Below, piece after piece: positions 12,986-59,598 of a DNA stretch of 59,598 nucleotides (positions are counted from its first letter, which is position 1; each line of letters opens with the position of its first letter). The position numbers and the translations under genes were made by a program. Origin of the DNA: a virus; IMG/VR virus record IMGVR_UViG_3300034782_000053; one strand, written 5' to 3'. Under the pieces are notes generated by a model. The model ran no database searches, was not told where the DNA came from, and saw nothing but the letters and a program-made list of their open reading frames with translations.

Positions 12986-12987
12986 GG

Positions 12988-14549: not shown

Positions 14550-14551
14550 CG

Positions 14552-15316: not shown

Positions 15317-15735
15317 CGCTCCCGCCGTTCGAGCATCGCCGCCGCGACGCGAGCGAGGACGAATCCTCCAATGATCGCGCCAATTGTGAGAAACCAACCG
15401 TTGCCAGAGCCGTTGCCACTGGCAACAGTGCCGAAGCCTTCGAGTCCCGTCGCCGGGACGATCTGCTTCCACATGGTGGGCTGTGAGATCAGGTCGCCTG
15501 GAACTGAGCCAGGGGGAACGACCGTCAACGTGCGCGTGGGGCCGCTGCGAATATCGTAAGGAGGAAGCACGGTGACAGGCGGCGGGATCGCTGGAAGCCC
15601 AAACTCCTCAGCGATGTACTTGCGCGCTTCCGTTGGCGTCCCATAGACCTGAAGGACGTGAGTGGGGGCCGCGTATCGAACCTTCCCCTCGTTGAAACCA
15701 GGATCAAACTCGGTGACGTAGTCGTATGTCGTCAT
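15313..15735 (-). CDS. C-tail-anchored membrane protein (140 aa), MYEY-like N-terminus (MTTYDYVTEF), interleaved in the EMGY array
   Basis: C-terminal GNGSGNGWFLTIGAIIGGFVLARVAAAMLERRER (NG repeat + TM + basic tail). ATG 15735. Confidence 0.7.
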   Translation of the reverse strand: MTTYDYVTEFDPGFNEGKVRYAAPTHVLQVYGTPTEARKYIAEEFGLPAIPPPVTVLPPYDIRSGPTRTLTVVPPGSVPGDLISQPTMWKQIVPATGLEGFGTVASGNGSGNGWFLTIGAIIGGFVLARVAAAMLERRER

Positions 15736-15744
15736 GAAACTCTC

Positions 15745-16701: not shown

Positions 16702-16702
16702 C

Positions 16703-21361: not shown

Positions 21362-21364
21362 CTG

Positions 21365-22495: not shown

Positions 22496-22497
22496 GG

Positions 22498-23541: not shown

Positions 23542-23543
23542 GA

Positions 23544-24590: not shown

Positions 24591-24602
24591 GGTTCTTCTC
24601 CC

Positions 24603-25328: not shown

Positions 25329-25330
25329 GC

Positions 25331-27177: not shown

Positions 27178-27179
27178 GG

Positions 27180-31993: not shown

Positions 31994-31995
31994 CC

Positions 31996-36380: not shown

Positions 36381-36767
36381 TCACTTCCCTGCTGTTGTGA
36401 ACAGAGCGATGCCGCCGATAAGAGCGACGATCCCAACAGACACGATCCCGATCTTGACCCAGTAAGCACCGCTCTCAGGATCTGGGCCGGGCTCGACCGT
36501 GTGACCTGGCTCTCCCTCTTCGGGCCGTCGGCCCCACTGTCGGAAGTGTGGGTTGACCCAGACTCCCTCAGGCACCAGACCAGCCTCGATCTGCGCCATA
36601 AAAGCTTCGCGCTCTTCCTCTGTCTCAGGGACCTGAATCCCGCGGAACCTCGCATCCGCGGGGATCGCCCAGTCCCACTCATGGACAGGAGGAATCGTTC
36701 TTCCGTCTGGCATGACCCCCATCGGCCTGACGTCATCAGTACCAAGTCCTGTCATGTATTCGTACAT
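36381..36767 (-). CDS. MYEY-family C-tail-anchored membrane protein (128 aa)
   Basis: Starts MYEYMTGLG. C-terminal YWVKIGIVSVGIVALIGGIALF. ORF-track start 36857 is an extension. Confidence 0.75.
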   Translation of the reverse strand: MYEYMTGLGTDDVRPMGVMPDGRTIPPVHEWDWAIPADARFRGIQVPETEEEREAFMAQIEAGLVPEGVWVNPHFRQWGRRPEEGEPGHTVEPGPDPESGAYWVKIGIVSVGIVALIGGIALFTTAGK

Positions 36768-36780: not shown

Positions 36781-37137
36781 CTACTCCTCGGACTCTTCGC
36801 CCTCGCCACGCTTGATGAGCCACCAAATGCCTCCGCCAACGAGTGTGAGAATACCAACGCCAGCTACACCGTAGACCCACATTGGCATCCCTGGGGCTCC
36901 TGGCTCATCAAGGGCGTAAGTATCTGTTGTGCTCTGCTGCTCGGGATCGGGGAGCACGATGTCGCCTCTTTCGATGGCTTGTATTACGCCGCGAACGCCG
37001 GGGCTCGAAATCAAGCTCGTCGCCTGAAGAGTCCCTGGACCTACAGTGCTGATACCCCCCCGATCTTGGACCGATGCGATAACTGACCCAAGGCCGCACC
37101 CAAGACACCCGGCCCCTGCTGTGCTCTGCTGATACAT
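36781..37137 (-). CDS. tail-anchored membrane protein, CxxC subfamily (MYQQSTAGAGCLGCGLG), 118 aa
   Basis: C-terminal PGMPMWVYGVAGVGILTLVGGGIWWLIKRGEGEESEE. Confidence 0.75.
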   Translation of the reverse strand: MYQQSTAGAGCLGCGLGSVIASVQDRGGISTVGPGTLQATSLISSPGVRGVIQAIERGDIVLPDPEQQSTTDTYALDEPGAPGMPMWVYGVAGVGILTLVGGGIWWLIKRGEGEESEE

Positions 37138-37158
37138 GAAAACCCTTTTCTACCGCGG

Positions 37159-37446
37159 TTACTCCGCTGCCTCTTCGCTCGGCCGCAGATACCACCAGAC
37201 GCCTGCGCCAATGAAACCAAGCAGCCCAACACCAGCAACGCCCCAAACCCACCAAGGCATCCCAGGAGGAGCACTCACCTGGCCATTTGTTGGCAGGCCT
37301 GTAACTTCACCCTGACGAGCGGCCAACGCGAACCGAATGGCCGAAGGATCGATACTCACGATCCTCATCATTTGGCCCGAGGAATCATCCTCTGTACCCA
37401 GGCCGCACCCAAGACAACCTGTTCCTGATGTGCTTGCCTGATACAT
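37159..37446 (-). CDS. tail-anchored membrane protein, CxxC subfamily (MYQASTSGTGCLGCGLG), 95 aa
   Basis: Paralog of the previous gene. C-terminal PGMPWWVWGVAGVGLLGFIGAGVWWYLRPSEEAAE. Confidence 0.75.
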   Translation of the reverse strand: MYQASTSGTGCLGCGLGTEDDSSGQMMRIVSIDPSAIRFALAARQGEVTGLPTNGQVSAPPGMPWWVWGVAGVGLLGFIGAGVWWYLRPSEEAAE

Positions 37447-37449
37447 GGC

Positions 37450-37731
37450 CTACTCCTCCTCGGATTCGCCGCGTTTCATCCACCACCAGACACCACCACC
37501 GATGGCCCCGAGTATTGCCACGCCTCCGACGCCCCAAACCCACCACGGGAGCCCCTCCTCATGCTCGAAACCACCAGGCTCCGGGTGAGGGATGTCTTCC
37601 TCTCCAGCCTCGGCAGCAGCACGAGCCGCCTGTTGCTGAGCAGCGAATTCCGGATCGATCGATGAAATCTGTGGCCCGATGTTGAGAAGAACGGGCTCGC
37701 TTCCCATTCCGTGAGGGTTGTACTCGTACAT
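37450..37731 (-). CDS. MYEY-family tail-anchored membrane protein (94 aa)
   Basis: ATG 37731-37729 in a TGATG overlap. MYEYNPHGMG...GLPWWVWGVGGVAILGAIGGGVWWWMKRGESEEE. Confidence 0.75.
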   Translation of the reverse strand: MYEYNPHGMGSEPVLLNIGPQISSIDPEFAAQQQAARAAAEAGEEDIPHPEPGGFEHEEGLPWWVWGVGGVAILGAIGGGVWWWMKRGESEEE

Positions 37732-38159
37732 CACTCCTCCTCCGCGGCTCGCCTTCTCTTGACGAGCCACCAAATACCGCCGCCAACCAGAGAGAGGAGG
37801 ACGACACCGCCAATCCCCATGACGATCATCCCAGTTCGCTGCTCTGCCTCGGCCTGTTGACGCATTAGTCGCTCTTGCGTCGCCTGGCGACCAGACTCCC
37901 ATTCAGCCTGATCCGCGGCCTGCTGAGCTTCTTGCCGCGCCAGGTGTTCTTGTCGTCGCTGCTCTTTCTGCTGCTCTGAAGCTGCAGTAAGGGCCTCGGC
38001 CATCACCTGGAACCCTTGCGGGTTCTCCTGCATGAGCTGCGATGCATGAGCCGCCAGCGCGGCACCACCTTCGAGACGCCGGCCTATCATTCCGATTACG
38101 CCGAGACCGCTCTCCTCACAGCCCAGGCAGCCAGCGCCCGACCTGTTCGACTCGTACAT
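37731..38159 (-). CDS. tail-anchored membrane protein, CxxC subfamily (MYESNRSGAGCLGCEESGLG) with Gln/Ala-rich coiled segment, 142 aa
   Basis: C-terminal IVMGIGGVVLLSLVGGGIWWLVKRRRAAEEE. Confidence 0.75.
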   Translation of the reverse strand: MYESNRSGAGCLGCEESGLGVIGMIGRRLEGGAALAAHASQLMQENPQGFQVMAEALTAASEQQKEQRRQEHLARQEAQQAADQAEWESGRQATQERLMRQQAEAEQRTGMIVMGIGGVVLLSLVGGGIWWLVKRRRAAEEE

Positions 38160-47424: not shown

Positions 47425-47912
47425 CAAGCAGCTCCGAGCGCCTCGCTGAACTCGCGTCCGAGACGGCGCTTGTAGGCAGCCTTATACGAAGCGCTCCTCT
47501 TGTAGGCGCGCTGATACACCTTGTTCAGGTAGGCGACGGCCTTGTAGATGCTTCCCGTCAGCGTCCCTCTCGAAAGGATGAACTCGGGCAGGTCGCTTGT
47601 GACTCGAATACGGTCGTACCTTTCGGGTGGAAAGGCACGGAACGACCGCCCAGTACCTCTGACGATGGTCCCGATGAGATCCTCTGACTTTCCGGTGGGC
47701 CGCATCGCGTAGACAGCGTACATGCCCTCTGGAAGGCCGTCTTTGCGAACCATGAGGAGGTTCCCATCGATCTCGAAGATCTGACCGCCAGGGTTCGAGG
47801 TCATGCGCCGCTTCTGGAGCAGCGTCATGCCGACAAAGCCCAACACCAGGCCACCGGCTGCATACATCCAGCCGTTGCTGCAATTCCCATTGGCGCAATT
47901 CTCGATGTTCAT
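47424..47912 (-). CDS. N-terminally anchored membrane protein with basic Tyr/Lys-rich C-terminus, 162 aa
   Basis: ATG 47912 with AGGAGA SD. MNIENCANGNCSNGWMYAAGGLVLGFVGMTLL. Confidence 0.65.
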   Translation of the reverse strand: MNIENCANGNCSNGWMYAAGGLVLGFVGMTLLQKRRMTSNPGGQIFEIDGNLLMVRKDGLPEGMYAVYAMRPTGKSEDLIGTIVRGTGRSFRAFPPERYDRIRVTSDLPEFILSRGTLTGSIYKAVAYLNKVYQRAYKRSASYKAAYKRRLGREFSEALGAA

Positions 47913-47920
47913 AACATCTC

Positions 47921-49204
47921 CTACTCTTTGCCCCACACCTCAGCATGGTGCTCGCTTTTTACCATCCCGACCTGGCCCTGCGGACCCACCATGGCGAAGC
48001 GATATGTCCTCTTGGTGCTCATCATTGGGAGCAACTTTTTTTGCTCCGTGGTGAGTTGAGTGCTCTTCCTGAGTTTTTTGATGTCGGGTCGCTCCACAAT
48101 GCGACGCTTTCTTCGCACCTCAGGCCTGTGCCCCCGTCCTGCAATAACACGCTCGGCGCCCTTCTCGATTCGCTGAAAAGATGTTCTTTTTTCACTCGTC
48201 GCGACTGCGTAGATCAGATTTCGCCCTGCGAGCTGAAGGCCGTACCGAACGATCTCTTTTTCTGGGATACCAGTGTCTGCCTTAACTTCGGCCGGAGACC
48301 GCTCTTTGTAGTGCTTCATCCGCCAGAACTGCTCGACACGGCGAGCGCGCTGTCCCTTTTTCTTAGGCAGCGTCTTGTACTTCGGCGGCACAAAACGTCG
48401 TTTCTTCCCCTTGACGAAGGAGCGAGCCAGATAGCCCATGAGCTGGTGCGCGACATAGACGGAAGTGACCGCACGCTTGCGAGTCGTTCCGATTTCAAGC
48501 TGCAGCTTTTTCTTGCCGACCCAGAAGTAAGCGTCATAAGCACGACCGCGGCGCTCGATGACACCAGCCCGGTCATCGCCAACCCAAACGATGAACCGAT
48601 TTTCCCCTGCGCCTACAGTGGGTTCGACTTCTATATTCTTGACCCAGCTCGGAACTGCGACCTCGACAGTCGTTGGTTCGGGGAGGGGCTCGGGCAGACC
48701 TGCCCACCGGCGATAAACAGCGGCGGCTGCCTTCTTCGCGCTGGAAAAATCCTCCATAAAGGGATCGATCTGGCTCCCCTCATAGGCTGCCCAATCCCCC
48801 GACTCGGTGCGCGTAACTGTTCCGATAAATCGCCTGTCAGCCGAGACGTTTCCTTCTTGGTGAGGTACTTCCCATTCAATTTTAAAAGGCTCTTTTGGGG
48901 CTTTCTCCTGCTGCCAAAATTCAAATACAGACTGAGCAGCTTGTTCCGCCCTCATCGCCTCAACGGACTGCATGGGCTGGTCCTTGAAGTTGTAGGGCAT
49001 CCAGCCGCTGACATAGGTGTCAAGAATGGATCCGATCTTCTCGTCACCCACCCAGACATTGGATTCAGCCTTTGACGGCTCTCCATCGTCATCGAGCCAA
49101 TCGAGACGCCATTCCGGATTTCGTCTTGGGGACGAATCAAAAAGTAGCTTCCCAAAAAGCCAACCACCGGCTACACCGGCAGCTATGTACACGAGGCCTC
49201 GCAT
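47921..49204 (-). CDS. N-terminally anchored protein (427 aa) with highly basic C-terminal third
   Basis: ATG 49204 (TGATG overlap). MRGLVYIAAGVAGGWLFGKLLF. C-terminal KKRRFVPPKYKTLPKKKGQRARR...RRKRRIVERPDIKKLRK. Confidence 0.75.
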   Translation of the reverse strand: MRGLVYIAAGVAGGWLFGKLLFDSSPRRNPEWRLDWLDDDGEPSKAESNVWVGDEKIGSILDTYVSGWMPYNFKDQPMQSVEAMRAEQAAQSVFEFWQQEKAPKEPFKIEWEVPHQEGNVSADRRFIGTVTRTESGDWAAYEGSQIDPFMEDFSSAKKAAAAVYRRWAGLPEPLPEPTTVEVAVPSWVKNIEVEPTVGAGENRFIVWVGDDRAGVIERRGRAYDAYFWVGKKKLQLEIGTTRKRAVTSVYVAHQLMGYLARSFVKGKKRRFVPPKYKTLPKKKGQRARRVEQFWRMKHYKERSPAEVKADTGIPEKEIVRYGLQLAGRNLIYAVATSEKRTSFQRIEKGAERVIAGRGHRPEVRRKRRIVERPDIKKLRKSTQLTTEQKKLLPMMSTKRTYRFAMVGPQGQVGMVKSEHHAEVWGKE

Positions 49205-49947
49205 CACTCCTCGGACTGGCTCCTCTTCTTTATGACGCCAGCAACTAGGCCAACCGCCACCGCGCCACCCGCAAACAACAACAGAGCCCCATACCTTTGA
49301 AAGAAGCCGTATTCGGGTTCAGCAGACTCGATGAGGATCTGTTCACGCTCGGCTATCCGCGCTTCTCTTTCAGCCAAATTAGCCGCCTGCTGCTCAGGGG
49401 TGAGTTCCGCATGGACGAAACGAGGACCCTCAGCAAGGCGAAATTCTACAGGACCGGGCTCTCTTCGCTTGCAGCAGATGAGCTGATGCGGACCTTCGAT
49501 AACACCGGTTTCATGGCAAGTTGTTGGAACATAGGCAATCTTCGGTGCCCACTTTGGATCGCTAGGATGCTCCTCGCCGGTTCGTGTCATAACAATAGGT
49601 CTGCAAAGACCCATTTCATTGAACCGGGTCGCCTCCTCCTCGGTCATTGGACGATGTTCTGGTAGGTCTTCGAGCGCGCAGCACCACGTCGCAACGCGAT
49701 TATAGCCAGGCTTTCCCGCCTCAAGAATTTCACCTGTGAAAAAGCAAGAGTCTTTATCGACCTTGCCACGGCCTGTTGGGTCCTGCGGACGAGGGGGTGG
49801 TTCTGTCGTCGAGTAAGAGAAGTACTCGCGGTGCTTCCACTTTGGACAGGTCTTTGTCCTCTCGACGAGAGGTTTCCCAGCATTTTTTTCCTGCCACATG
49901 ATATCGGGGCCAAGAATGCCGAGACCTGTCATGTACTCGTAGGACAT
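49204..49947 (-). CDS. MYEY-family tail-anchored membrane protein, Cys-rich domain (247 aa); paralog of 52199..52984
   Basis: ATG 49947 gives MSYEYMTGLG. C-terminal YGFFQRYGALLLFAGGAVAVGLVAGVIKKRSQSEE. Confidence 0.8.
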   Translation of the reverse strand: MSYEYMTGLGILGPDIMWQEKNAGKPLVERTKTCPKWKHREYFSYSTTEPPPRPQDPTGRGKVDKDSCFFTGEILEAGKPGYNRVATWCCALEDLPEHRPMTEEEATRFNEMGLCRPIVMTRTGEEHPSDPKWAPKIAYVPTTCHETGVIEGPHQLICCKRREPGPVEFRLAEGPRFVHAELTPEQQAANLAEREARIAEREQILIESAEPEYGFFQRYGALLLFAGGAVAVGLVAGVIKKRSQSEE

Positions 49948-49950
49948 CAC

Positions 49951-50475
49951 CTACCTCGTTTTCCAGTACCAGACCGCCCCACCGATACCGAGACCCAAAA
50001 CTCCCAGCACCGCGACGGCTCCCCATGGGAAGCCGCCCGGCTGCTCAGCGGGCAGTGCCTCTTCTGCTGGCGCAGCAGTTTCAGCAGTTTCCTGCGGAGT
50101 GACCTCAAGCTCAGTCGGCATCATCAAGGTCATCTGTTGAATGGCCTGCGGGCAGCAGTACCAGGACATCCCATCTTCCATGCACTGAAGGGAGCATCCT
50201 CTTTCGCGCATTTCGTTTTCAAGAGCGAGCGCGGCCACCGCATCGCTGTAGTCGGGTCGAACGCCTTCTCGAACTGTGCCATCGGGGCAACCTACCCCGC
50301 TGCATGCTTGTTCGCGAATAGCCGCTATCCTCTCCTGGCGACCTTCACGAAGACGACGAAAAGCTGCCACGCCATTCGACGATGTCGTCTCAGTTGCTTG
50401 CTTGAGAAAAGCCGGTCCAAAGAAAGCAGAAATCGTCTCACCCGCACCCATCCCCGTCATGTACTCATACGCCAT
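49951..50475 (-). CDS. MYEY-family tail-anchored membrane protein (174 aa)
   Basis: MAYEYMTGMG... C-terminal GGFPWGAVAVLGVLGLGIGGAVWYWKTR. Confidence 0.8.
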   Translation of the reverse strand: MAYEYMTGMGAGETISAFFGPAFLKQATETTSSNGVAAFRRLREGRQERIAAIREQACSGVGCPDGTVREGVRPDYSDAVAALALENEMRERGCSLQCMEDGMSWYCCPQAIQQMTLMMPTELEVTPQETAETAAPAEEALPAEQPGGFPWGAVAVLGVLGLGIGGAVWYWKTR

Positions 50476-50980
50476 GGCTTACCCTCGTTACGGTCTTGCC
50501 GAGGAACGGAATGTCCTCTCCAGCCTGGACCCGTTTCTTCCAACTCCACACGACCAAGGCGAGCGCCGCGAGAACACCAACAACAAGGATGACGCCGATG
50601 GTCCTTCGCCTCGACTGATACTGATCGCTCTCAGTCCACTGTTGAAAAACCTGCTCGACACGCTCTGGGTTGCAACACCAGACGTCCGTGTAGTCGCGGA
50701 TTGCTCTAGCGCCAAACGGTCTTTCTTCGTCTGGATCGCTCCACTCGACGCCAGCTCGAACAGCCTGCGTACCGAGGTCTACACAACCGGCGCGGCCGTA
50801 CAGCTCGGCGTCCATCCAGTCCATCTGAGCGAAACGCTGTCCACCCTCGGTCTCGGGACATGGTCGGCCGGTCGCTCGTCTGAAAGCGCCTCGTCCTGCG
50901 CCAATCCTGCTGTACAGCTCGCGATAGGCATAGGACTCGGGGTCCAAGTCGGCCAAGGCCGTTGTGTACTCGTATGCCAT
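50465..50980 (-). CDS. MYEY-family tail-anchored membrane protein (171 aa)
   Basis: Internal ATG 50980 (TGATG overlap). MAYEYTTALADLD... C-terminal TIGVILVVGVLAALALVVWSWKKR. Confidence 0.75.
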   Translation of the reverse strand: MAYEYTTALADLDPESYAYRELYSRIGAGRGAFRRATGRPCPETEGGQRFAQMDWMDAELYGRAGCVDLGTQAVRAGVEWSDPDEERPFGARAIRDYTDVWCCNPERVEQVFQQWTESDQYQSRRRTIGVILVVGVLAALALVVWSWKKRVQAGEDIPFLGKTVTRVSHGV

Positions 50981-51291
50981 CAGGACTCCAACGCCCACCG
51001 ACGCATCATCTCGTTGATGCGACGCTTCCCGCTCTCTGTGAAAACAAGCTTGTAGACCGCGATACCGCCAACAATGACAGCACCCAGCATCGCGACACCG
51101 TACCAATTGACCGTCAGAACACCAGGGAGGACGCGCACGGACGTATCGCCAACCTCGATCTCTCGCGAGCCGACGTAGTGCTGCGTCGTTCCGGGAGTCG
51201 CCAACATCTCAGCGACAAGAGCGTCACGCTCTTCCGGAGTGTCCGTCCTCACGACACCCAGAGGCGCCGCTGATGTCCTGACGTAGGCCAT
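50980..51291 (-). CDS. small tail-anchored membrane protein (MAYVRTSAAPLG...), 103 aa
   Basis: Internal ATG 51291. C-terminal VNWYGVAMLGAVIVGGIAVYKLVF. The ORF-track N-terminal Arg/Ser-rich stretch is probably non-coding. Confidence 0.6.
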   Translation of the reverse strand: MAYVRTSAAPLGVVRTDTPEERDALVAEMLATPGTTQHYVGSREIEVGDTSVRVLPGVLTVNWYGVAMLGAVIVGGIAVYKLVFTESGKRRINEMMRRWALES

Positions 51292-51295
51292 CACC

Positions 51296-52177
51296 TCACC
51301 AGCAGTTCTTGCAGGGAGTCTTGTTTCGGCGCGGGACCTCGACCATTGTCTCAGCCGGAACAGTCTTGGCCTTGCCCAGCCTCTCCACCGCCTTCTTTTC
51401 CTGACGGTTTCTCCACGCCTTGGCCGCGACAGCACCGCCAACGACGCCGCCGAGGATCCAAAACCAGTTATTCTTGATCCCTGCCCAAAGCGGGTGGTCG
51501 AGCCCGAGCATCGCGTTCGACGGAACACCCTTCCACTGAGTCGACTTCGCGAAGGCGAAAAGCTCAGCGGGAACAGGGAGCGCAGTCGGAGTGGCACCAG
51601 CCTCAGCGTTCTGGACGATGAAGGCAGCAAAGCCCGCTCGATCGACCTCAGCCCACCAACGAAGGAATGGTTCCATATCAGCGAGGGCCGGCATCGTCGT
51701 TCCAGCGGCGACAAGCGCCCGGACACGATTCATCGAGGCGACGTAGAGGTTGTACAGCTCCTGCTTGAACCGAAGAGTGTTTCCTTCGAGCCATTCGGGG
51801 AGCACAACGCCCTCGGCCATGAACAAGTCTTTGGACAGCTTCAGGGCCATGATTTTCATGAACCAGTCCATGTAGCCCTGGTCATAGGCCATGAGCCACT
51901 GAACGAACTCCATGCCGCTGGGCGAATCCTTGTCCAGGTAGACGAAGGGTCCCTTCTCGGCCTTCAGCTCGTCGACGAACACCGTCAGCTCCGGAGAAAC
52001 CATCCCACCTGAAGGAAGGGATTCAGGGGGGCCAAGGATAATCCCCGGGTCAGGACCAACCGAAGTGGGTGCGCCCAAAATGATCCCCGAATCAGGCGGC
52101 ACTGGAACTCCAGGGCCAAGTTGTATCCCGCTGTCCGTGAATGCCTGAGTCCCCATTCCTGTCATGTACTCGTACAT
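51296..52177 (-). CDS. MYEY-family tail-anchored membrane protein (293 aa)
   Basis: MYEYMTGMGTQAF... Pro/Gly-rich repeats (GIILGAPTSVGPDPGIILGPPES). C-terminal NNWFWILGGVVGGAVAAKAWRNRQEKK. Confidence 0.8.
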   Translation of the reverse strand: MYEYMTGMGTQAFTDSGIQLGPGVPVPPDSGIILGAPTSVGPDPGIILGPPESLPSGGMVSPELTVFVDELKAEKGPFVYLDKDSPSGMEFVQWLMAYDQGYMDWFMKIMALKLSKDLFMAEGVVLPEWLEGNTLRFKQELYNLYVASMNRVRALVAAGTTMPALADMEPFLRWWAEVDRAGFAAFIVQNAEAGATPTALPVPAELFAFAKSTQWKGVPSNAMLGLDHPLWAGIKNNWFWILGGVVGGAVAAKAWRNRQEKKAVERLGKAKTVPAETMVEVPRRNKTPCKNCW

Positions 52178-52198
52178 ATCTCTCTCCTGATCCCCGGT

Positions 52199-52984
52199 TT
52201 ATTCTTCGTCCTTCTTCGCCTTGGCCCTCTTGACGAGCCCGGCTGTGATTCCGATTCCCAATGCTCCAACGCCGAGGAGCAGGAAAACGCCGTATCGTTG
52301 AAAGAACCCGTACTGAGGCTCTGCCGTTTCTGCGAGCATCCTCTCTGTCTCAGCGATTCGCGCCTCTCGCTCCTGAGCCTGCTGCTCAATCATCTCGGCG
52401 CTGGGCGCCGCGAACTGAATGCCGTTTTCCGGCATTACGAAACGGACTTTTCCAGGCTCTTTCCGCTTACAGCAGATGAGCCTGTAATCGCCGTCATAGA
52501 CCGATGTCGTGTGGCAGGTGTTCGGAATATAGGCATCCTTGTCGCGCCACTCTGGGTCACTCGGGTACTCCTCGCCCGTTGTCGGCATCGTGATGGGGTT
52601 GCAAACCCCCAGCGATAGATAACGATCAGCCTCTTCAGCCGTCAGCGTTCGCTTGGGAGCATAGGTGTGCTTTGGGCAGCACCATTCTTCTCGACGAGAG
52701 CCACCAGGCGCTCTTGCTTCTTGGATACGTCCCGTCTTGTAGCAGGCTGTATCCGGAACCATTTCGCCCCGGTGCGCATACTTTGGAGGCCCCAAATTTG
52801 GCGGAAGATGGCTGCGCTCGTTTGAACTCGGACAGGAACGCGTTTCCGACGTGATCCACTTTCCCGCGTTCTCACGACTCCACGGCTGATCTGGGCCGAA
52901 GAATTCAGCGCCCATGCCCTGATCCTCGCCATCCGTCGGACAACGAGTCACGTTATAGTAGGGCGAGATGAACACGTAAGACAT
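52199..52984 (-). CDS. tail-anchored membrane protein, Cys-rich domain (261 aa); paralog of 49204..49947
   Basis: MSYVFISPYYNV...GEEYPSDPEWRDKDAYIPNTCHTTSVYDGDYRLICCKRKEPG... C-terminal YGFFQRYGVFLLLGVGALGIGITAGLVKRAKAKKDEE. Confidence 0.8.
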   Translation of the reverse strand: MSYVFISPYYNVTRCPTDGEDQGMGAEFFGPDQPWSRENAGKWITSETRSCPSSNERSHLPPNLGPPKYAHRGEMVPDTACYKTGRIQEARAPGGSRREEWCCPKHTYAPKRTLTAEEADRYLSLGVCNPITMPTTGEEYPSDPEWRDKDAYIPNTCHTTSVYDGDYRLICCKRKEPGKVRFVMPENGIQFAAPSAEMIEQQAQEREARIAETERMLAETAEPQYGFFQRYGVFLLLGVGALGIGITAGLVKRAKAKKDEE

Positions 52985-52993
52985 GCCGTCCCC

Positions 52994-54361
52994 CTACAGG
53001 CCCGACGGGTGACGTCGAGATTTTGGTGGGGGAAGCATCATGTTTTCAGCCAGCTCGGCCACCTCTTCTTCGGCCCTGGATCGTCTCACCCACCACCAGG
53101 CGGCTCCGCCCATTGCCGCGAGTGCGCCGATCGCGATGAACCACTTGTAGCGAGAGAAGAAACCGGGCTCTTCATCCAACAGGTCGCCATTGGTATAGAG
53201 AGGAGCGCCGTTCCCATTCCCGTTCGTCACGAGTGGTGAGAGATCGACATCTAGCTCCGGTGTCGGAGTCGTCACCGTAACATGCCCCTCAGCATCATCG
53301 ACTGGAGCCGTTTCCGGCTGAGGCTGCCCGCGCTGATCGACCCCCGGAGGAGTTTCCCATGGCCTCAGGAAGTCTGGTGGACAGCAGTAGATGTTCTTGT
53401 CTGGGGCTCCGCTGACGATCGTTTTCACGACACCACAGCCCTCTGCCCTCATCTGCTCCTCGTAGCGCTTTTCAGCGATAACCGAGAGAGTAGCCCCTGG
53501 CTTGCAAGTCATCTGGGCGATCTCTGCGGGATCTGTTGGCGGCTGGTATTCGACAGGGGTATCTGGGTCTCGCCCTGCCTGAGCAGGCGGGGCGACCGCC
53601 ATTTCGGACGCCTTCCACTGGTCCTTGATTTTGAACAGGCTATTGAGCGTTGATGAGCTGGGACAGGGCGGCGTTCTCGTGCTCTTCCCGAATGTCCCAC
53701 CACCAAGCAGCTTGCTGCCGTGGTGACTGACGAACCAGTTGAAGGCATCTCTCGGAACGATGCTGTCGTTGAAAGTGTGTGTGGTCAGCCACATAGCCCA
53801 CGTGGGCTTGTGGCAACGACGCCACCATGAAAAGAACCTTTTACGATCCTCCTCCGCACGTCTCTTTTTCAGCGTTGTCGTTGCAGCCGCGACAGGGTTG
53901 AAGAAATCGCGCCCGAGCTGAGCCTGAGAAAGCATGGCGTTGCGGAAATCGGCCAGAAGCTCCGCCTCCATGTAGGTGTACTCGGGGTCCTCATCCTTTC
54001 GGCATGCCGCCGAAGAGCTGCCAAACATCTGGCAGTTCCACATCTTGAGGCTGTAGCGCTCCTCGGGCATCGTCAGGACAGTTCCGGGAGGATTGGTCGG
54101 CGTCAGGATGGTCCCGAAAATAACCAACTGGATTCCAGCGGTCTGCTCTGTCTCCGTCTTTCCAGTGCTCGAAGCGCCGCCGACCAACGTCCTCATTCCA
54201 GATGCACTTGCAAGAGTGAACTGGTTGGATCCTTTGGCGAAAGATCCACTTGAGCTGGAACCAGATGTAGAACCACCATTGCTCGAAGGCATTGTCATCG
54301 TGCCCTCGGCGAGTGGCTTTACCGTCATCTGCCCGAGCCCTGTCATATACTCATAAGTCAT
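52994..54361 (-). CDS. MYEY-family tail-anchored membrane protein (455 aa)
   Basis: MTYEYMTGLGQMT... C-terminal NGNGNGAPLYTNG...PGFFSRYKWFIAIGALAAMGGAAWWWVRRSRAEEE. Confidence 0.8.
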   Translation of the reverse strand: MTYEYMTGLGQMTVKPLAEGTMTMPSSNGGSTSGSSSSGSFAKGSNQFTLASASGMRTLVGGASSTGKTETEQTAGIQLVIFGTILTPTNPPGTVLTMPEERYSLKMWNCQMFGSSSAACRKDEDPEYTYMEAELLADFRNAMLSQAQLGRDFFNPVAAATTTLKKRRAEEDRKRFFSWWRRCHKPTWAMWLTTHTFNDSIVPRDAFNWFVSHHGSKLLGGGTFGKSTRTPPCPSSSTLNSLFKIKDQWKASEMAVAPPAQAGRDPDTPVEYQPPTDPAEIAQMTCKPGATLSVIAEKRYEEQMRAEGCGVVKTIVSGAPDKNIYCCPPDFLRPWETPPGVDQRGQPQPETAPVDDAEGHVTVTTPTPELDVDLSPLVTNGNGNGAPLYTNGDLLDEEPGFFSRYKWFIAIGALAAMGGAAWWWVRRSRAEEEVAELAENMMLPPPKSRRHPSGL

Positions 54362-54385
54362 CGTTTGTGCCTTTCATCCAAGGTT

Positions 54386-56227
54386 TCAGTAGTCTTCCAT
54401 GTTGGCTTCAAGACCAGACGGCGAAGACGGAAGTTCCTGTTGACGACGGCGGTAGTACCAGTAGCCACCGCCTGCTACCCCGAGCGCGAGAAGGAGTAGC
54501 CACCACCAGTTTTGCTGACACCAGGTTCTCTCTGGGCCGACCTCCTGGGCAGTAGCCGCAGCCTCCTGGGTGGTGAGGTTGATATCTTGCAGTATTTCGT
54601 TCGCTTCCGTTTCAGCATCCAGAACATCCTCAGCAGCTATGGCGACATCCTGCTCCATGTCCTGAATGGTCTCTTGAACCTGTGACACCTGACCCTGTGG
54701 AACAGCACCAGCGGCGAGCAGACGGCGAAGGCGATTGATTTCCTCCTCCATACGGTAAATCTGCTCCTGGTTCTTTTCCGCAGCGACGCGAGCTGCTTCG
54801 AGGTGTTCCTTCTGAGCGGCGGCGAGCGCGGCCGTCAGCTCATCGACTTCTTTTTTCAAACGTTCCAAGTCCTCAGGGCTTGCGGTTCCGGCCGCAACCT
54901 CGTCTTTCTTGGCGTCAAGCTCGTCCTTCTTCGAGTCGAGTTTTTCTTTGATATCCTCGACTTCCTCTTCTTTTTGGGACGCTTGAAGGACGGCCTCCTC
55001 GGCTTTTTCTGGGTCTTTCGCAACGTCGTAGATAGGATCCTCTGGCTCCCTTTCGCCCTCCATGATTCTGCGGTGCACTTCCTCCCCCCGCACCAGTAGC
55101 CTTGTACCTGTGGTCGCATCTTGAGCGACCTCTTCTGCCGTTGAAGGGGTCGTCGGCTCGATGTAACCGAAGATCTCCATGCGAGCCGTACCGACAGGGC
55201 ACGAAACAACGTTTTTCTCGGCGGCGACGTCGTAGATGGGGGCGACCACCCCGACCGCCGTTGAGCGCTTGGACCCACCAGCCGTTTCGACGTCTGTTTT
55301 CCGGATCGCGTCCTCTGCCTTTCGCTCGGCCTCGTGTCGAGCGAACATATCCGTGCGTTCTCGCTCGCGACGAGCACGAGCCTCTGCACGTACTTCAGGG
55401 GTCGCCGTCTCCAGGGCCTTTCTTTCGGCGTCATGCCTAGCCCTCAGATCGCGCACCTCCTGGCTCCGTCGCTTCTCCGCGTCTCTTCGCTGCTCAGCGT
55501 GCCGCTGCACTGCGCCGACTTCGATAGCGCCGAGACCAATCGAACCTACAGGCGCGGGGGCGCTTCTCCCCCCATTTCCGTTCCGAGCATCCTGGCGGAT
55601 ATCCCAGTATTGGAAGGTTAGAGCCGGGATATGATTCGGATACACAGTGCTCGCCGAAGATGCAAAGGTGTGAAGCGCAGCCCAGAAGTCCTTATCACAC
55701 CCCTCACACCAGCTTTTGAACAGCTCGACCTTGCCGAGCGCACGTTGTTGGGCGACCGCAAGAGACACAGCTTCTTGCTGCTGAATCTTCTTCGCGATAT
55801 CGGTGATCGTGATCGAATCCTTCAGCGTCCTGAGGACTCTGGCCTTTGCGTTGAGGTAGTTGCGATAGTTTGCAGCAGGAACCCGAATCGGTGTCGCATG
55901 CCAGTTGATAGAGTTAAAGACAGATATCGGATACCGCTTTCGCAGGTACATTCGAAGAGTTGCAACGTCGACAGCCTTCACAGCGGACATCGGAACTGTG
56001 GGCGCCGCTTTTCCAGCGGTCGATTTCACAACCATCGTTGGCGCCACTGTGCGCGCCGTCGAAGTTGGCGCCACTGAGACAGTCGAAACCTGTGATGGCG
56101 CAGATTTCCCGATGGTTGGGATTGACGTTGGGTAGTAGGCCGATTTTGAAGCAGGTGTTCTTGAAATCGACGTTTGGACTGTTGATGCAGCGCCCATGCC
56201 GGCCATGGGGTAGTGCTCGTAAGGCAT
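54386..56227 (-). CDS. long coiled-coil, C-terminally membrane-anchored protein (613 aa), MYEY-like N-terminus (MPYEHYPMAGMG)
   Basis: ATG 56227, 6 nt after AGGAGG. The ATG at 56233 abuts the SD. Extended heptad-rich region. C-terminal WWWLLLLALGVAGGGYWYY. Confidence 0.75.
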   Translation of the reverse strand: MPYEHYPMAGMGAASTVQTSISRTPASKSAYYPTSIPTIGKSAPSQVSTVSVAPTSTARTVAPTMVVKSTAGKAAPTVPMSAVKAVDVATLRMYLRKRYPISVFNSINWHATPIRVPAANYRNYLNAKARVLRTLKDSITITDIAKKIQQQEAVSLAVAQQRALGKVELFKSWCEGCDKDFWAALHTFASSASTVYPNHIPALTFQYWDIRQDARNGNGGRSAPAPVGSIGLGAIEVGAVQRHAEQRRDAEKRRSQEVRDLRARHDAERKALETATPEVRAEARARRERERTDMFARHEAERKAEDAIRKTDVETAGGSKRSTAVGVVAPIYDVAAEKNVVSCPVGTARMEIFGYIEPTTPSTAEEVAQDATTGTRLLVRGEEVHRRIMEGEREPEDPIYDVAKDPEKAEEAVLQASQKEEEVEDIKEKLDSKKDELDAKKDEVAAGTASPEDLERLKKEVDELTAALAAAQKEHLEAARVAAEKNQEQIYRMEEEINRLRRLLAAGAVPQGQVSQVQETIQDMEQDVAIAAEDVLDAETEANEILQDINLTTQEAAATAQEVGPERTWCQQNWWWLLLLALGVAGGGYWYYRRRQQELPSSPSGLEANMEDY

Positions 56228-56277
56228 TCCCATCCTCCTGAGGGTGGAGTTCTCTCTGAATTTCTCAGAAGGGGGCC

Positions 56278-56300
56278 GGCGTGATAGAACATATCACGCC
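56278..56300. other. perfect hairpin palindrome GGCGTGATA-GAACA-TATCACGCC in the largest intergenic gap of the cluster
   Basis: 9-bp stem and 5-nt loop. Followed on the plus strand by TTTAAATGTTAAAG. A 13-mer motif copy is nearby (56319-56331). Confidence 0.5.
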
Positions 56301-56347
56301 TTTAAATGTTAAAGCAAGCGTCTTGAGGATGAACGAACCTTGGCAGC

Positions 56348-56698
56348 TCAGTTCGCAGCGGCTCGATAGGGCACGTAGACAGGCACCCGAGAGTAGCCAG
56401 CAAGCTGCGGAGCCTCGTAAAGCTCTGTCCCGGTCGGCTCCTCCTCCTCGCCATGCGAAAGCATCATCTCTTTGATGGCGAGCCCGACGGCCGTCAGAAT
56501 AATCGCCGGAATTATTGGCCTTTCTGGCCACTTCTTGATAGCCCACAGCCCGATTGGCAGGCTAACAATCGTTCCTACGACACCGATTTTCACCAGGAGC
56601 TTGATGATGTCCCAGTCCTGCTGAGACAACGAAAGTAAACCGCCACTCTCGGTCGGCTGTTGCAGTGCTTCACTGCCGAGAGGAGCGAGAGAATACAT
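56348..56698 (-). CDS. small 2-TM membrane protein (116 aa)
   Basis: MYSLAPLGSE...IVSLPIGLWAIKKWPERPIIPAIILTAVGLAI. Confidence 0.65.
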   Translation of the reverse strand: MYSLAPLGSEALQQPTESGGLLSLSQQDWDIIKLLVKIGVVGTIVSLPIGLWAIKKWPERPIIPAIILTAVGLAIKEMMLSHGEEEEPTGTELYEAPQLAGYSRVPVYVPYRAAAN

Positions 56699-56713
56699 GG
56701 GTTCAAGCTAGCA

Positions 56714-56726
56714 CGTCCTCAGGATG
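56714..56726. other. copy of the recurrent 13-mer (CGTCCTCAGGATG), intergenic, 19 nt upstream of gene 56348..56698
   Basis: Read directly in the sequence. Confidence 0.5.
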
Positions 56727-56730
56727 TAGG

Positions 56731-57531
56731 TCAATCCAGTAGCCCACCCCAGCTTCCTTTGTTGCGAACCATGCTGTCGGAGTTCAGTGCGATCTCCTTG
56801 TTCTTGTACCAGCGCCGCTTGTAGTTCCCCCTGTGCCTGTGGAACTGGTGCATCGGGGCAAGGCCCTTGTCGCCGAGGTTGACCGGAGGCGTCTTGTTCA
56901 TATGCAAGCGCCTGACCATATCGTCGTCCTCGAAGCCCCACCCCCACAGACGCTCGTCGTAACCACGCATCTCGAAGAGCAGGTCCCTCTCGATAAAAAA
57001 ACATCCACCCTTCGCAGCAGCGTCGATGGAGCCATTTTTTCGGTTCTCAACGAAGTCGGACACCTCGAACTGCTCGTAGATTGGGCTCTGAGGCCCCTGC
57101 CTCATCCTGTGGACTGGTGAGTACGCCGCCTTCTCCTCGTCCCCAATTATCTTTCGCACCGCACGGAGGGTGCCAGGATGAAGGACGATATCAGCATCCA
57201 CGAAACCGACGATCCGTCGCTGCGCTCGCCTAGCGCCTGCGTTGCGAGCCAGAGCTACCGGAAACTCCGGGAGGTCATGCTCAACCATAACCAGAGAGAA
57301 CCCAAACACGTGATCGTACTGATACGCCAAGCTAACAAAAGGATCGACCTGGACAGGATACTCCGATGACTCCTTGCAGTAAGAGATAGATACAATAACT
57401 TCTATGCGATCTTTGCAGCCCTTCTGGGCCTCAAGCGCAGCAAAGCAATTAGCAAGGTAGTCAATGTATTTGGTCGAAGAAACAGGTATAACAATGCTCA
57501 CCCCTGAAGAGGACGTTTTCTTTCGCCGCAT
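56731..57531 (-). CDS. family-2 glycosyltransferase (GT-A fold)
   Basis: VSIVIPVSS...ARNAGARRAQRRIVGFVDADIVLHP (DxD). ATG 57531 immediately after the upstream TAA (57535-57533). Confidence 0.8.
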   Translation of the reverse strand: MRRKKTSSSGVSIVIPVSSTKYIDYLANCFAALEAQKGCKDRIEVIVSISYCKESSEYPVQVDPFVSLAYQYDHVFGFSLVMVEHDLPEFPVALARNAGARRAQRRIVGFVDADIVLHPGTLRAVRKIIGDEEKAAYSPVHRMRQGPQSPIYEQFEVSDFVENRKNGSIDAAAKGGCFFIERDLLFEMRGYDERLWGWGFEDDDMVRRLHMNKTPPVNLGDKGLAPMHQFHRHRGNYKRRWYKNKEIALNSDSMVRNKGSWGGLLD

Positions 57532-57532
57532 C

Positions 57533-59191
57533 TTAACGGGTTCTCTTTTGCATGAGCTTTTTGAAGATCGCATTAGCGCGGCTGTTAGCAATGAACCCCC
57601 TTTCCCTCGCACTTAGCTCAGTTTTCCAGCGATCGTCTACGGAGATATCTTCTCTCTTGTGCGCCTTGGGATTTCCACCGACCGCATGATACTCGACCGC
57701 TGCGTAGTCCTTCTCCTCCGGCAGCTCACCAGGGATTCCAAGAGCCTTGCGAACTTTTTCTGTCATTCCCCAGGGATCTTCAGCCAACTCTTCGTAGTTA
57801 ACAAAGAGAAGCCGACGACAGTACTGAGGCGCCCAACGAAGCATACCGTCGTACATTCCAGCATAGCCGGCGACGGCCTGCTCGACCGTCTGACCTTCGT
57901 TTCTCATGTCGCTGAGAGCTGCCGCCTCCGGCCGCTTGAACAAAACAATGCCATCAACATTGTTTCTGGCGCAGCACTGGCTGTAATGACCCGTCAGCTT
58001 GTCAGAGACAACAAGAGTGTCCACCCCCATCCTCTCCGCAACCTCACGGTAGAGATCCTTCTTTTTCGGGGGGCTGGCGATGAAGCTCTCGCTGAAAACA
58101 CGGCACTTCTCTCCGCATTTTACGCACCTACGAGTGACGGGCCATCCAGCTTTCGTCTTCACGTCACCAATGAGCGGTGCATCATGGACCCAGTGCAGCT
58201 CTCCCGCTGCGCCGACACCGTCGATAGCCGCCATCAGACGGCTGAGTAAAGTGCTCCCGCAAAAGCTTCTACCGATGATTCCGATGATCCGCGGCCCCTC
58301 GACGCATTCACCAAAGCTGTCTACGGGTTTGAGGTTATCCTTGAAGCTCTGGGTCTCGTCCCCCTCTACGCAATCGATCTCAGGCACCTCTTCTTCGAGG
58401 TTGTGTCCACAGGCGTTCCACAGGGGCGCGTTTTTCAGGTGCCACTTGTTGTAAAAGATCTGACATGAGCGCCAAATCATCTCCGATGACCACCGGTCTT
58501 GGTTGTACTCAGCATTTGTACAAATATGCTTGTGATGTACACATGTGGGGTTCATCATATGAGCGTACTGAACACCCGCCATCCACATCTGATATGCGAA
58601 GTCAATATTCTCTCCAGAAACAAAATATCGTGGGTCTGGGCAGATGCCCCTTTTGAATGTTTCTACAGGAATAACAGTCACACCCATGCCAGAATAATCG
58701 CAGATTTCGTAGTTGGCAAAACCGCTAAGCTTCCGTGTTGCGTGAGTTCCGTTATAAAAAACCAATTGGCCATTTTCTTTACGAAACAATCTGGACGGAA
58801 TATCACCAGGAGAGATAAACCCAGCACCTACATCGAACTCTCCTCTCTTCCGCTCAGCCTCGATTGCCCTGATGAGCAAGTCCCATCCCCACTTGGGGAT
58901 CGTGATGTCGTCATCGACCTTGGCCCACCACGGACTCTCAAGACGCTCGATGCTCTCGTGAAGCGGCAAAGACAGACCAACGTTCTTCTCTTTATGATCA
59001 ACGACCAGCTCGAACTTGAACTCGCTCGCCCTTGGAAGAGAAATACCTTTTTGAAGGGGACCCTGGACAACCAGCTCGACACGGTGAGGCTTCTTGGTTG
59101 CAAACTCCAGGGCGCCGAGGGTATTGAGCAGGCAGTTTAGCGGCCGTCTCGGATGGTAGAGAACGATTGTCGTCAAGAAAGGCTGTGCCAT
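57533..59191 (-). CDS. bifunctional protein: N-terminal GT2-like glycosyltransferase domain + C-terminal sulfotransferase-like domain
   Basis: N-terminal TIVLYH...VDDDITIP. C-terminal IIGIIGRSFCGSTLLSRLM (PAPS-binding 5'PSB-like loop, compare Sulfotransfer_3 PRSGTTLL) and later LFKRPEAAALS (3'PB-like). ATG 59191. Confidence 0.6.
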   Translation of the reverse strand: MAQPFLTTIVLYHPRRPLNCLLNTLGALEFATKKPHRVELVVQGPLQKGISLPRASEFKFELVVDHKEKNVGLSLPLHESIERLESPWWAKVDDDITIPKWGWDLLIRAIEAERKRGEFDVGAGFISPGDIPSRLFRKENGQLVFYNGTHATRKLSGFANYEICDYSGMGVTVIPVETFKRGICPDPRYFVSGENIDFAYQMWMAGVQYAHMMNPTCVHHKHICTNAEYNQDRWSSEMIWRSCQIFYNKWHLKNAPLWNACGHNLEEEVPEIDCVEGDETQSFKDNLKPVDSFGECVEGPRIIGIIGRSFCGSTLLSRLMAAIDGVGAAGELHWVHDAPLIGDVKTKAGWPVTRRCVKCGEKCRVFSESFIASPPKKKDLYREVAERMGVDTLVVSDKLTGHYSQCCARNNVDGIVLFKRPEAAALSDMRNEGQTVEQAVAGYAGMYDGMLRWAPQYCRRLLFVNYEELAEDPWGMTEKVRKALGIPGELPEEKDYAAVEYHAVGGNPKAHKREDISVDDRWKTELSARERGFIANSRANAIFKKLMQKRTR

Positions 59192-59194
59192 TGC

Positions 59195-59598
59195 TCAAAA
59201 CTCCTCACTCACCTCGGGGCCACCGGCCCGAAAGACCTCTTCTGTGCCATCGGGGAACTTGCCGAAAACGTTCTTGTAAAGACCGACATCGTTCAGGCCC
59301 CATTTATCAACCAGCTTCTGCCATGCTTCCCTTTTTTGCTGGTCGCCGAGTCTCACAGCTTCATACTCAGGAGGGCTACAACGTTTTTTCTGATGAGGCG
59401 CCAGCGGATCAGTGATATGAATCGCAAGATAGCCCTGCTTCAGCATCTGCAAAGCCAGGTCGATGTGCTCACTCGCGACAAAGTGCTGCGGATCAAAGTT
59501 GCAGCCGCTTCGAAAAACCTCTGGAAGATAGATAACGGCGCCATTGCCACAGATGTCACAAATGGCGTACCTCGTCTTTTCGAGATCACGTTCAACGT
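59195..59598 (-). CDS. partial CDS (C-terminal part; N-terminus beyond window end), Cys-rich (…ICDICGNGAVIYLPE…)
   Basis: The frame is open from the window end down to the stop at 59195. ORF-track entry 59195..59452 is its 3' portion. Confidence 0.5.
   Translation of the reverse strand, partial: VERDLEKTRYAICDICGNGAVIYLPEVFRSGCNFDPQHFVASEHIDLALQMLKQGYLAIHITDPLAPHQKKRCSPPEYEAVRLGDQQKREAWQKLVDKWGLNDVGLYKNVFGKFPDGTEEVFRAGGPEVSEEF

Follow-up and report, generated by a model that had tools for sequence, protein, structure and literature searches.

The stretch of DNA considered here, 59,598 nucleotides (nt) of the virus record IMGVR_UViG_3300034782_000053 from IMG/VR and referred to throughout as the window, carries close to its end two minus-strand genes that together fill positions 56731-59191. 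The first to be transcribed, gene A (57533..59191, 552 amino acids (aa), stop codon included), encodes a divergent GT-A glycosyltransferase domain fused to a sulfotransferase (ST) domain, and the second, gene B (56731..57531, 266 aa, stop codon included), encodes a GT2 glycosyltransferase. From the two proteins, their relatives and their genomic context, it is predicted with a probability of roughly 0.6 that genes A and B take part in making a sulfated glycan, also methylated and pyruvylated, through a soluble virus-encoded pathway. The genome itself is treated as that of a large (~183 kb) uncultured prokaryotic virus.

Organization of the Two Genes

Two minus-strand open reading frames (ORFs), 57533-59191 and 56731-57612, occupy the interval exactly as delimited in an earlier note on this DNA, which had been drawn up from the letters alone. 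The order given there, a GT2 gene followed by the fusion, is reversed, since in the direction of transcription the fusion comes first. Gene A starts with an ATG at 59191, located 3 nt after the stop codon of an upstream paralogue of its own N-terminal domain and preceded by GAGGAG 9 nt upstream; the JGI annotation places the start five codons later, at a TTG. The longest ORF of gene B (56731-57612, 293 aa) begins with a GTG at 57612 and overlaps gene A by 80 nt. An ATG at 57531, found 1 nt after the TAA of gene A and chosen as the start in the public assembly, yields the 266-aa protein and is almost certainly the true start rather than GTG 57612. The spacing of these starts and stops points to translational coupling in the order paralogue, gene A, gene B. 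A promoter and terminator scan around the two genes gave nothing above chance. An origin of the fusion as an assembly or frameshift artefact was ruled out by the presence of the identical protein on four contigs and by the in-frame linker.

The Sulfotransferase Domain of Gene A

The C-terminal domain comprises aa 302-552 (57536..58288; all features of genes A and B described below lie on the minus strand). Single-sequence searches with gene A produced no usable match in the PDB (phmmer, with ferritin-level noise only), PHROGs or NCBIfam, and a word-indexed homologue search returned just the protein itself. The Pfam model Sulfotransfer_3 (PF13469), with a cut-off of 27 bits, scores 26.0 bits on the whole protein and 28.9 bits on the isolated domain, the latter match spanning just the last 60 model positions. 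An exhaustive HMMER search recovered 528 relatives of gene A at E <= 1e-3, and these separate without overlap into two sets: one, of ~250-aa proteins, aligns with aa 300-550, and the other, of ~265-aa proteins, with aa 5-260. No protein spanning both halves is present among the 150 best of the 528 relatives. The boundary between the two sets is an acidic 40-aa inter-domain linker (aa 262-301, 58289..58408), for which the same search gave no covering homologue, the matches ending near aa 260 or beginning near aa 300.

An alignment of 71 relatives of the ST domain, termed A1, is the source of all residue counts out of 71 reported here. PF13469 matches 60 of these sequences (E <= 0.01), and all PDB matches of the A1 profile up to E 0.4 are sulfotransferases, led by the CurM ST (4.9e-12) and the olefin-synthase ST (1.3e-11) and followed by TPST1 (7.5e-8) and TPST2 (~5e-6). 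The AlphaFold model of the domain reaches a predicted local distance difference test score (pLDDT) of 96.7 and a predicted template modelling score (pTM) of 0.92. With every significant profile and fold match being a sulfotransferase, the assignment made in the earlier note stands up to the comparison that could have placed the domain in another family. By descent the domain appears to belong to the CurM-ST/TPST branch of the sulfotransferases that use 3'-phosphoadenosine 5'-phosphosulfate (PAPS), minus one catalytic residue and plus a Cys/His site. A tblastn search of 50,697 isolated phage genomes gave no match to the domain; single-protein scans of viral contigs with gene A, an 845-aa protein and P0084, and of genome contigs with gene A, likewise returned no relatives.

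Residue equivalences were taken from hidden Markov model (HMM) alignments to the CurM ST (4gbm) and TPST1, with conservation counted by column over the 71 sequences. Both motifs quoted in the earlier note are found in the protein. The strand-loop-helix for 5'-phosphosulfate binding (5'-PSB), GRSFCGSTLL, lies at aa 307-316 (58244..58273) in a register given by the 4gbm and TPST1 alignments; its P-loop aligns with RSGST of the CurM ST and RSGTT of TPST1, with G312 kept in 70, S313 in 68 and T314 in 69 of the 71 sequences. The 3'-phosphate-binding (3'-PB) motif LFKRPEAAALS, at aa 417-427 (57911..57943), aligns with the corresponding strand-helix of the CurM ST and TPST, and here position 419 is Lys in 54 sequences and Arg in 17, next to a conserved P421 (66/71) and S427 (70/71). 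Between the two motifs, the segment GELHW (aa 330-334, 58190..58204), which contains the predicted catalytic base Glu331 and His333, is aligned with PPELH of the CurM ST and CGEET of TPST1 (E331 71/71, G330 70/71, H333 55/71), while the segment SDK (aa 396-398, 57998..58006) is aligned with DKSP of the CurM ST and supplies Lys398, the equivalent of CurM ST Lys133 and TPST2 Lys158 (D397 64/71, K398 69/71). The intact 3'-phosphate motif argues for PAPS, or its product 3'-phosphoadenosine 5'-phosphate (PAP), as the nucleotide. A kinase reading of the domain was rejected on the basis of this motif and of the missing Walker-A lysine.

Two features set the domain apart. The catalytic residues of TPST2 are Arg78, Glu99 and Lys158, and their replacement by Ala substantially reduces activity (PMC10951654). 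The Glu and Lys equivalents are present in gene A as Glu331 and Lys398, and the site of the catalytic Arg in the CurM ST and TPST, two residues before the 5'-PSB Gly, is occupied by Phe310 (58262-58264). This position holds Phe in 35 sequences, Tyr in 19, His in 10, Arg in 5 and Leu in 1, with an aromatic Phe or Tyr in 54 of the 71. The second feature is a set of columns occupied by Cys or His only: the family-specific insert contains CxxCxxxC (aa 356-363, 58103..58126), which would furnish three ligands of a putative zinc site, and His502 (57686..57688) is, from its conservation, the probable fourth. C356 and C363 are invariant (71/71 each), position 359 is Cys in 49 and His in 20 sequences, and position 502 is His in 67 and Cys in 4, hence of ligand type in all 71. 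Together these columns probably form a structural zinc site in the insert, which follows the Glu strand and precedes the next helix; the site has no counterpart in the PDB sulfotransferases aligned with the A1 profile.

It is these departures that favor a different reading, according to which the ST-fold domain is not a conventional PAPS sugar O-sulfotransferase and serves instead as a PAP/PAPS-binding or zinc-dependent accessory or regulatory domain, uses another donor, or sulfates a lipid or small metabolite. Besides the aromatic residue at a position where TPST2 needs Arg78 (PMC10951654) and the conserved Cys/His4 site, a relative on the contig carrying P0153, described below, sits amid small phage genes with no recognizable glycosyltransferase near it. 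All the same, the other catalytic and PAPS-binding residues are kept, with E331 and K398 conserved as stated, Lys or Arg at position 419 in all 71 sequences, S427 in 70 and the GST of the P-loop in ~69, and such strong purifying selection argues for an active PAPS enzyme. Moreover, the lack of a Walker-A lysine speaks against a kinase, and the loci examined agree in their glycan context. An atypical function of this kind is consequently regarded as unlikely, and a PAPS-dependent sulfotransferase acting on a sugar is preferred.

The N-Terminal Domain and Gene B

The N-terminal domain of gene A (aa 1-261, 58409..59191), for which stand-alone homologues of ~265 aa exist, has no Pfam match when taken alone. 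Its alignment with 34 relatives (A2) reveals a DDD (DxD) metal/nucleotide-sugar motif at aa 93-95 (58907..58915), in which D95 is invariant and D94 at least 90% conserved. Pfam matches are scattered among the 34 members, eight of them matching PF00535 (best E 2.6e-7) and five Fringe, and in the PDB the A2 profile matches only weakly the DxD surroundings of GT-A enzymes (manic fringe, E 0.024). The strongest support is provided by a profile-profile comparison with A5, an alignment of eight canonical GT2/7C enzymes from the same clusters: hhalign gives a probability of 93.9% and an E-value of 1.5e-7 over 235 columns, with DDD falling on the DxD (DaD) and the downstream G-x-D-x-D on G-W-G-x-E-D-x-D. 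The same comparison of A2 with single GT2 sequences is weak, with probabilities of 17.9% and 0.6%. The description of this region as GT2-like in the earlier note is therefore right in the sense of a divergent GT-A domain, which lacks a Pfam match of its own and is supported at the profile level.

The gene directly upstream is a stand-alone paralogue of this domain, 38% identical to aa 6-259 of gene A (E 3e-55). Its 3' part, the last ~130 codons, lies at 59195..59598 on the minus strand and is cut off by the end of the window; the A2 HMM matches positions 59198-59596 with an E-value of 1.5e-35. The complete gene is a 286-aa ORF at 9122-9982 of the contig L001.

Gene B is a GT2 enzyme, as had been proposed, with three Pfam models of GT2 type above their gathering cut-offs: PF10111 (38.5 bits, cut-off 27.3), PF00535 (36.2 bits, cut-off 23.3) and PF02709, Glyco_transf_7C (34.8 bits, cut-off 23). 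Its DxD motif is DAD at aa 112-114 (57190..57198), of which D114 is invariant in A5. The only match of gene B among PDB sequences is Beta4GalT7, beta-1,4-galactosyltransferase 7. A 28%-identical paralogue of gene B is encoded five genes upstream in the cluster described next.

The Glycan Cluster and Its Relatives

The earlier note had placed the two genes at the head of an operon, which is not the case: the window stops partway through a cluster that extends upstream by 10 more glycan genes in the same direction. This is readily apparent from the contig JGI 3300034988 Ga0373575_000003, 99.99% identical to window positions 47533-59598, which extends 9.6 kb further upstream, and from IMG/VR record UViG_3300034782_000062 (182,770 bp), which contains the same genes and another ~8 kb upstream. 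Genes A and B close a glycan-assembly cluster of ~13 genes whose enzymes are soluble. Transcription order runs from two GT4 glycosyltransferases (genes 1 and 2, 408 and 384 aa) to a CsaB-like polysaccharide pyruvyltransferase fused to an S-adenosylmethionine (SAM) methyltransferase (gene 3, 597 aa), a GT2 (gene 4, 342 aa), a GT2-like protein (gene 5, 336 aa), a methyltransferase (gene 6, 222 aa), a GT-A-like protein (gene 7, 339 aa), a GT2/7C (gene 8, 280 aa), a radical-SAM enzyme (gene 9, 328 aa), the GT-A paralogue (gene 10, 286 aa) and finally genes A and B (genes 11 and 12). The gene just before the cluster is TSCPD-like, an arrangement shared by two relatives. No transmembrane (TM) segment is predicted in any of the 12 cluster enzymes, the gene A protein included, and Pfam families of phosphoglycosyltransferases, flippases, polymerases and ABC exporters are absent from the cluster and its relatives (~8 kb upstream plus the window downstream).

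The radical-SAM enzyme (L001 8166-9152), located directly before the GT-A paralogue, carries CxxxCxxC and a Cys-rich C-terminal part and has a homologue at L002 7373-8347. Among NCBIfam models it comes closest to SPASM-type maturases and MoaA, with scores far below cut-off in every case, and it could modify either a sugar or a peptide.

Relatives of the ST domain picked up by its profile were mapped onto their contigs. Three of them (L003, L004 and L008) show the same order, GT4-GT4-pyruvyltransferase/methyltransferase-GT2...ST-GT2; L003 is a contig in a metagenome-assembled genome (MAG) assigned to Planctomycetota and L004 is 80 kb long, and in both the cluster is followed by the M-x-YE-tagged proteins discussed below. 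The closest relative of the ST domain, 51% identical, is found in L002, where the order is radical SAM, GT-A paralogue, GT-A and ST, with the GT-A and ST as separate genes overlapping by 4 nt. The fusion in gene A thus unites neighbors that were already coupled, a Rosetta stone relation. A more distant phage-like contig, L010, with DNA_pol_B_exo2 and NUDIX genes and no large glycan cluster in its 18 kb, carries an ST gene and, overlapping its end by 4 nt, the gene for a 334-aa protein; this protein shares 32% identity (E 7e-44) with the 339-aa GT-A-like protein of the cluster. The pair of sulfotransferase and GT-A therefore looks like a conserved minimal module. An exact 48-mer taken from L001 had no occurrence in metagenome contigs.

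The domains are also found in other combinations. A2-type GT-A domains number one to four per cluster and in other proteins are joined to methyltransferases or to two GT2 domains; the partners of A1-type domains in other proteins are FkbM or SAM methyltransferases and, in more distant cases, TPR repeats. Such shuffling of modules that would add a sugar with modules that would decorate one fits glycan chemistry. On the contig that carries P0153 (JGI 3300042731), a 34%-identical ST relative stands among small phage genes with no recognizable glycosyltransferase within 10 kb, and the ST family may accordingly serve outside glycan clusters as well. The association of ST and glycosyltransferase genes across loci is strong, not universal. 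The P0153 neighborhood also holds an Acb2/Tad1-like anti-defence gene, a protein kinase/PP2C pair and a UvrD helicase.

Tagged Proteins Downstream and Tyrosine Sulfation

Downstream of gene B lie a gene for a 116-aa protein with two TM segments and then a series of tagged proteins, several of which have a single C-terminal TM segment. At least nine proteins of the window begin with M-x(0-4)-[YF]-E-x(1-8)-G-[LMAT]-G (for example MYEYMTGLG), and many end in a single C-terminal TM segment; they are encoded on the minus strand within 33456-56233, for example at 52994-54361, 51296-52177, 49951-50475, 49204-49950 and 36381-36767. The tag also occurs in L003, L004, L010 and L011, related and distant virus contigs among them, with the second Tyr variable, and a role as a targeting or processing signal is possible.

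Further variants of these proteins were observed. Small proteins encoded at 36781-38159 on the minus strand begin with MYQ(Q/A)ST(A/S)G(A/T)GCLGCGLG or MYESNRSGAGCLGCE, a Cys-containing form of the tag, and have C-terminal TM segments. A C-terminal P-S-G-L motif recurs after the TM anchor, with endings such as RRHPSGL, SSPSGLEANMEDY and RRPSGL, in proteins at window positions 52994-54361 and 54386-56233 on the minus strand and at L003 12331-12543. Upstream of the first GT4 gene, at a distance of a few kb, L011, a contig of the same virus, encodes two further proteins (280-954 and 4996-5667): one is MSYEY-tagged and contains two CarboxypepD_reg-like beta-sandwich repeats, the other is a GDSL/SGNH hydrolase.

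The tag bears directly on the question of tyrosine sulfation. The earlier note had put forward two possibilities, sulfation of the Tyr residues in the YEY tags by a protein-tyrosine sulfotransferase or the making of a sulfated glycan or glycolipid. RaxST is a bacterial protein-tyrosine sulfotransferase, and a TPST/RaxST-like ST domain acting on the M-x-Y-E-Y tags, or elsewhere on the downstream membrane proteins, would be in keeping with the TPSTs being among the nearest solved folds, tied with the polyketide sulfotransferase, and with the co-occurrence of tagged proteins and ST in four loci. The comparison of tags does not bear this out. Those of the window are mostly M(x)YEY, whereas L004 has SYEG, SYES, SYEK and TYER, L003 has PFEY, and L010 has SFEM and TYEH. 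Neither tag Tyr is conserved: the residue after the Glu is Gly, Ser, Lys, Arg, His or Met in L004 and L010, and the one before it is Phe in L003 and L010. A Tyr with Glu at position -1 is consequently specific to this virus, the first aromatic residue can be Phe, and no conserved acceptor Tyr in an acidic context was found in the tagged proteins of the ST-carrying relatives. Furthermore, the ST is fused or coupled to glycosyltransferases in the contexts examined, its fold similarity to the polyketide sulfotransferases is equal to that with the TPSTs, relatives of both domains occur elsewhere in fusions with methyltransferases of sugar type and with GT2 domains, and the co-occurrence of tag and ST may just mirror shared virus ancestry. 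Tyrosine sulfation is accordingly judged improbable, and of the two possibilities the sulfated glycan or glycolipid is the one that the cluster context supports.

Nature of the Genome

Hardly any of the dense, co-directional and mostly small ORFs that flank the cluster has a Pfam match; the few exceptions are a DNA methyltransferase, a GDSL hydrolase, NUDIX, and ATPases of MoxR type accompanied by a VWA/DUF2201 partner. The lineage has no member among 185,579 GTDB species representatives, which were searched with gene A and with the profile A6.

These data bear on whether the locus could be an ordinary bacterial exopolysaccharide or lipopolysaccharide cluster, for example of Planctomycetota, whose sulfated polymer is exported to the cell surface. 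One homologous contig has been deposited in a Planctomycetota MAG, and the pyruvyltransferase is similar to CsaB, an enzyme whose substrates are cell-wall polymers. The link to Planctomycetota comes from this single MAG and constitutes weak evidence, whereas the missing initiating phosphoglycosyltransferase, flippase, polymerase and ABC exporter, together with enzymes devoid of TM segments, do not correspond to an export system. The small co-directional ORFans of the flanks, the deposition of the genome in IMG/VR as a viral genome of 182,770 bp and the absence of the lineage from GTDB argue in the same direction. A bacterial surface-polymer cluster is thus very unlikely, and the virus-encoded pathway is retained.

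Other features of the window are recorded here for completeness. About 20 consecutive paralogues of ~240-560 aa, each with an N-terminal acidic segment ending in (L/V)xEMGYE(P), occupy 12179-31993 on the minus strand as a large tandem expansion. At 29523-35036 on the same strand, two tandem MoxR/AAA_5 ATPases, one of them MYEY-tagged, are followed by a DUF2201 metallopeptidase-VWA protein, and this set makes up a chaperone-like module between the two paralogue families. The sole large plus-strand gene of the window (10486-12231) encodes an N6/N4 DNA methyltransferase (PF01555, 2.4e-29; phrog_67) and runs against the direction of almost all other genes.

Proposed Pathway

Taking into account the domain assignments, the conserved motifs and the gene order, a sequence of steps can be proposed in which we infer PAPS as the donor and a sugar as the acceptor. 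The N-terminal GT-A domain of gene A would use its DDD motif to extend the growing glycan by a sugar taken from a nucleotide-sugar. The ST domain would bind host-made PAPS through the GST P-loop and through K419 and S427, with Glu331 acting as the base and Lys398 as the stabilizer of the leaving group, so that a sugar hydroxyl would become O-sulfated; this hydroxyl would probably be on, or beside, the residue added by the fused glycosyltransferase. Gene B, as a GT2 enzyme, would add a further sugar. The upstream enzymes, namely the two GT4 proteins, the pyruvyltransferase-methyltransferase fusion, the several GT2-like proteins, the methyltransferase and the radical-SAM enzyme, would account for what remains of the glycan and for its methyl and pyruvyl groups. 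A possible final carrier is the set of tagged proteins encoded just downstream, which are tail-anchored and rich in Ser and Thr.

Several observations count against this proposal. The Lys or Arg of the 5'-PSB motif, a defining feature of the catalytic site, is replaced in gene A by Phe310, and with Arg at the TPST2 Arg78 position in only 5 of the 71 relatives, activity or donor could be atypical. Single-sequence AlphaFold2 modelling of the whole gene A protein gave a pLDDT of 33.5, unusable for the fold of the N-terminal domain. A PAPS-synthesis gene nearby, which the earlier note had suggested looking for, did not turn up either: a motif scan of the window and the fetched loci with their flanks detected no signature of adenosine 5'-phosphosulfate (APS) kinase, ATP sulfurylase, PAPS reductase or CysQ, and nothing resembling PAPS-supply genes is present in the 7.6 kb upstream of the cluster. 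The donor would consequently need to be made by the host.

A more far-reaching version can be formulated tentatively. In it, ~13 enzymes would form a complete soluble cytoplasmic pathway whose glycan, sulfated as well as methylated and pyruvylated, is assembled directly on tail-anchored, Ser/Thr/Pro-rich proteins of the virus itself, which bear M-x-YE-x3-G-L/M-G. The GT-A/ST fusion would be an "add and sulfate" module that dispenses with the 5'-PSB Arg or Lys and carries a zinc site, and the whole would be a prokaryotic-virus counterpart of the glycosylation that chloroviruses and mimiviruses carry out independently of their hosts. Taken in all its parts, this version is rather doubtful.

Comparison with Known Systems

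The enzymes closest to the ST domain by profile differ from gene A in setting. The CurM and olefin-synthase STs (4gbm, 4gox) sulfate a beta-hydroxyacyl chain bound to an acyl carrier protein within a polyketide synthase, whereas the partner in gene A is a glycosyltransferase; in the aligned sequences, the CurM-type ST has the 5'-PSB Arg and no CxxCxxxC...H, in contrast to Phe310 and the Cys/His site of gene A, and identity is 18%. From TPST1 and TPST2 (5wri, 3ap1; 12-14% identity), gene A differs by the Phe in place of Arg78, the lack of a membrane anchor and its glycosyltransferase partners in the genome, and its candidate substrates show no conserved acidic-Tyr acceptor motif. Heparan sulfate N-deacetylase/N-sulfotransferase (NDST) resembles gene A in concept, as a glycan-modifying domain fused to a sulfotransferase; unlike gene A it is a Golgi membrane enzyme with the canonical 5'-PSB Lys and a deacetylase partner, and its fold match is far weaker than that of TPST or CurM.

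The closest functional analogy is provided by A064R of chlorovirus PBCV-1, a soluble protein with fringe-class GT-A and methyltransferase domains and with the capsid protein as its cytoplasmic target (PMC5408694). Both A064R and gene A are soluble multidomain viral enzymes without a TM segment or signal peptide, in which a GT-A domain is fused to a sugar-decorating domain. Both would form part of a virus-autonomous glycan pathway, and five members of the family of the N-terminal domain match the Fringe Pfam model. In contrast, A064R belongs to a eukaryotic virus and its decorator is a methyltransferase; the likeness is drawn at the level of function, and for gene A glycosylation of a virion protein is hypothetical. 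By this analogy, gene A would work most like multidomain virus-encoded glycan enzymes such as A064R.

Sulfated glycans are rare in prokaryotes. BFVD contains viral proteins of the same fold as the ST domain that are annotated as sulfotransferases, from an uncultured marine virus (A0A0F7LAT0), from Synechococcus phage S-SCSM1 and from giant viruses (Foldseek E 9.4e-9 to 1.5e-4), which gives the presence of ST genes in viruses a precedent. They share 11-16% identity with the ST domain of gene A, lack the glycosyltransferase fusion and are uncharacterized, and to our knowledge no functional data exist for them. A phrase search of the literature found no characterized virus-encoded sulfotransferase.

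Conclusions

If gene A is active, it would represent a virus-associated sulfotransferase clade with a non-canonical active site, in which an aromatic residue stands in for Arg or Lys and a Cys/His4 site is added. An uncultured virus would then decorate something, plausibly its own membrane proteins, with an anionic and heavily modified glycan and without membrane-bound machinery. The surface chemistry of the lineage and the role of its tagged proteins become experimentally approachable, and a compact module of glycosyltransferase and sulfotransferase is on offer for glycoengineering. Should the glycan prove to be a mundane modification of the host surface, the result would amount to a routine annotation of accessory genes; its significance would rise sharply if the soluble viral enzymes prove to build the glycan on the virus's own tagged membrane proteins.

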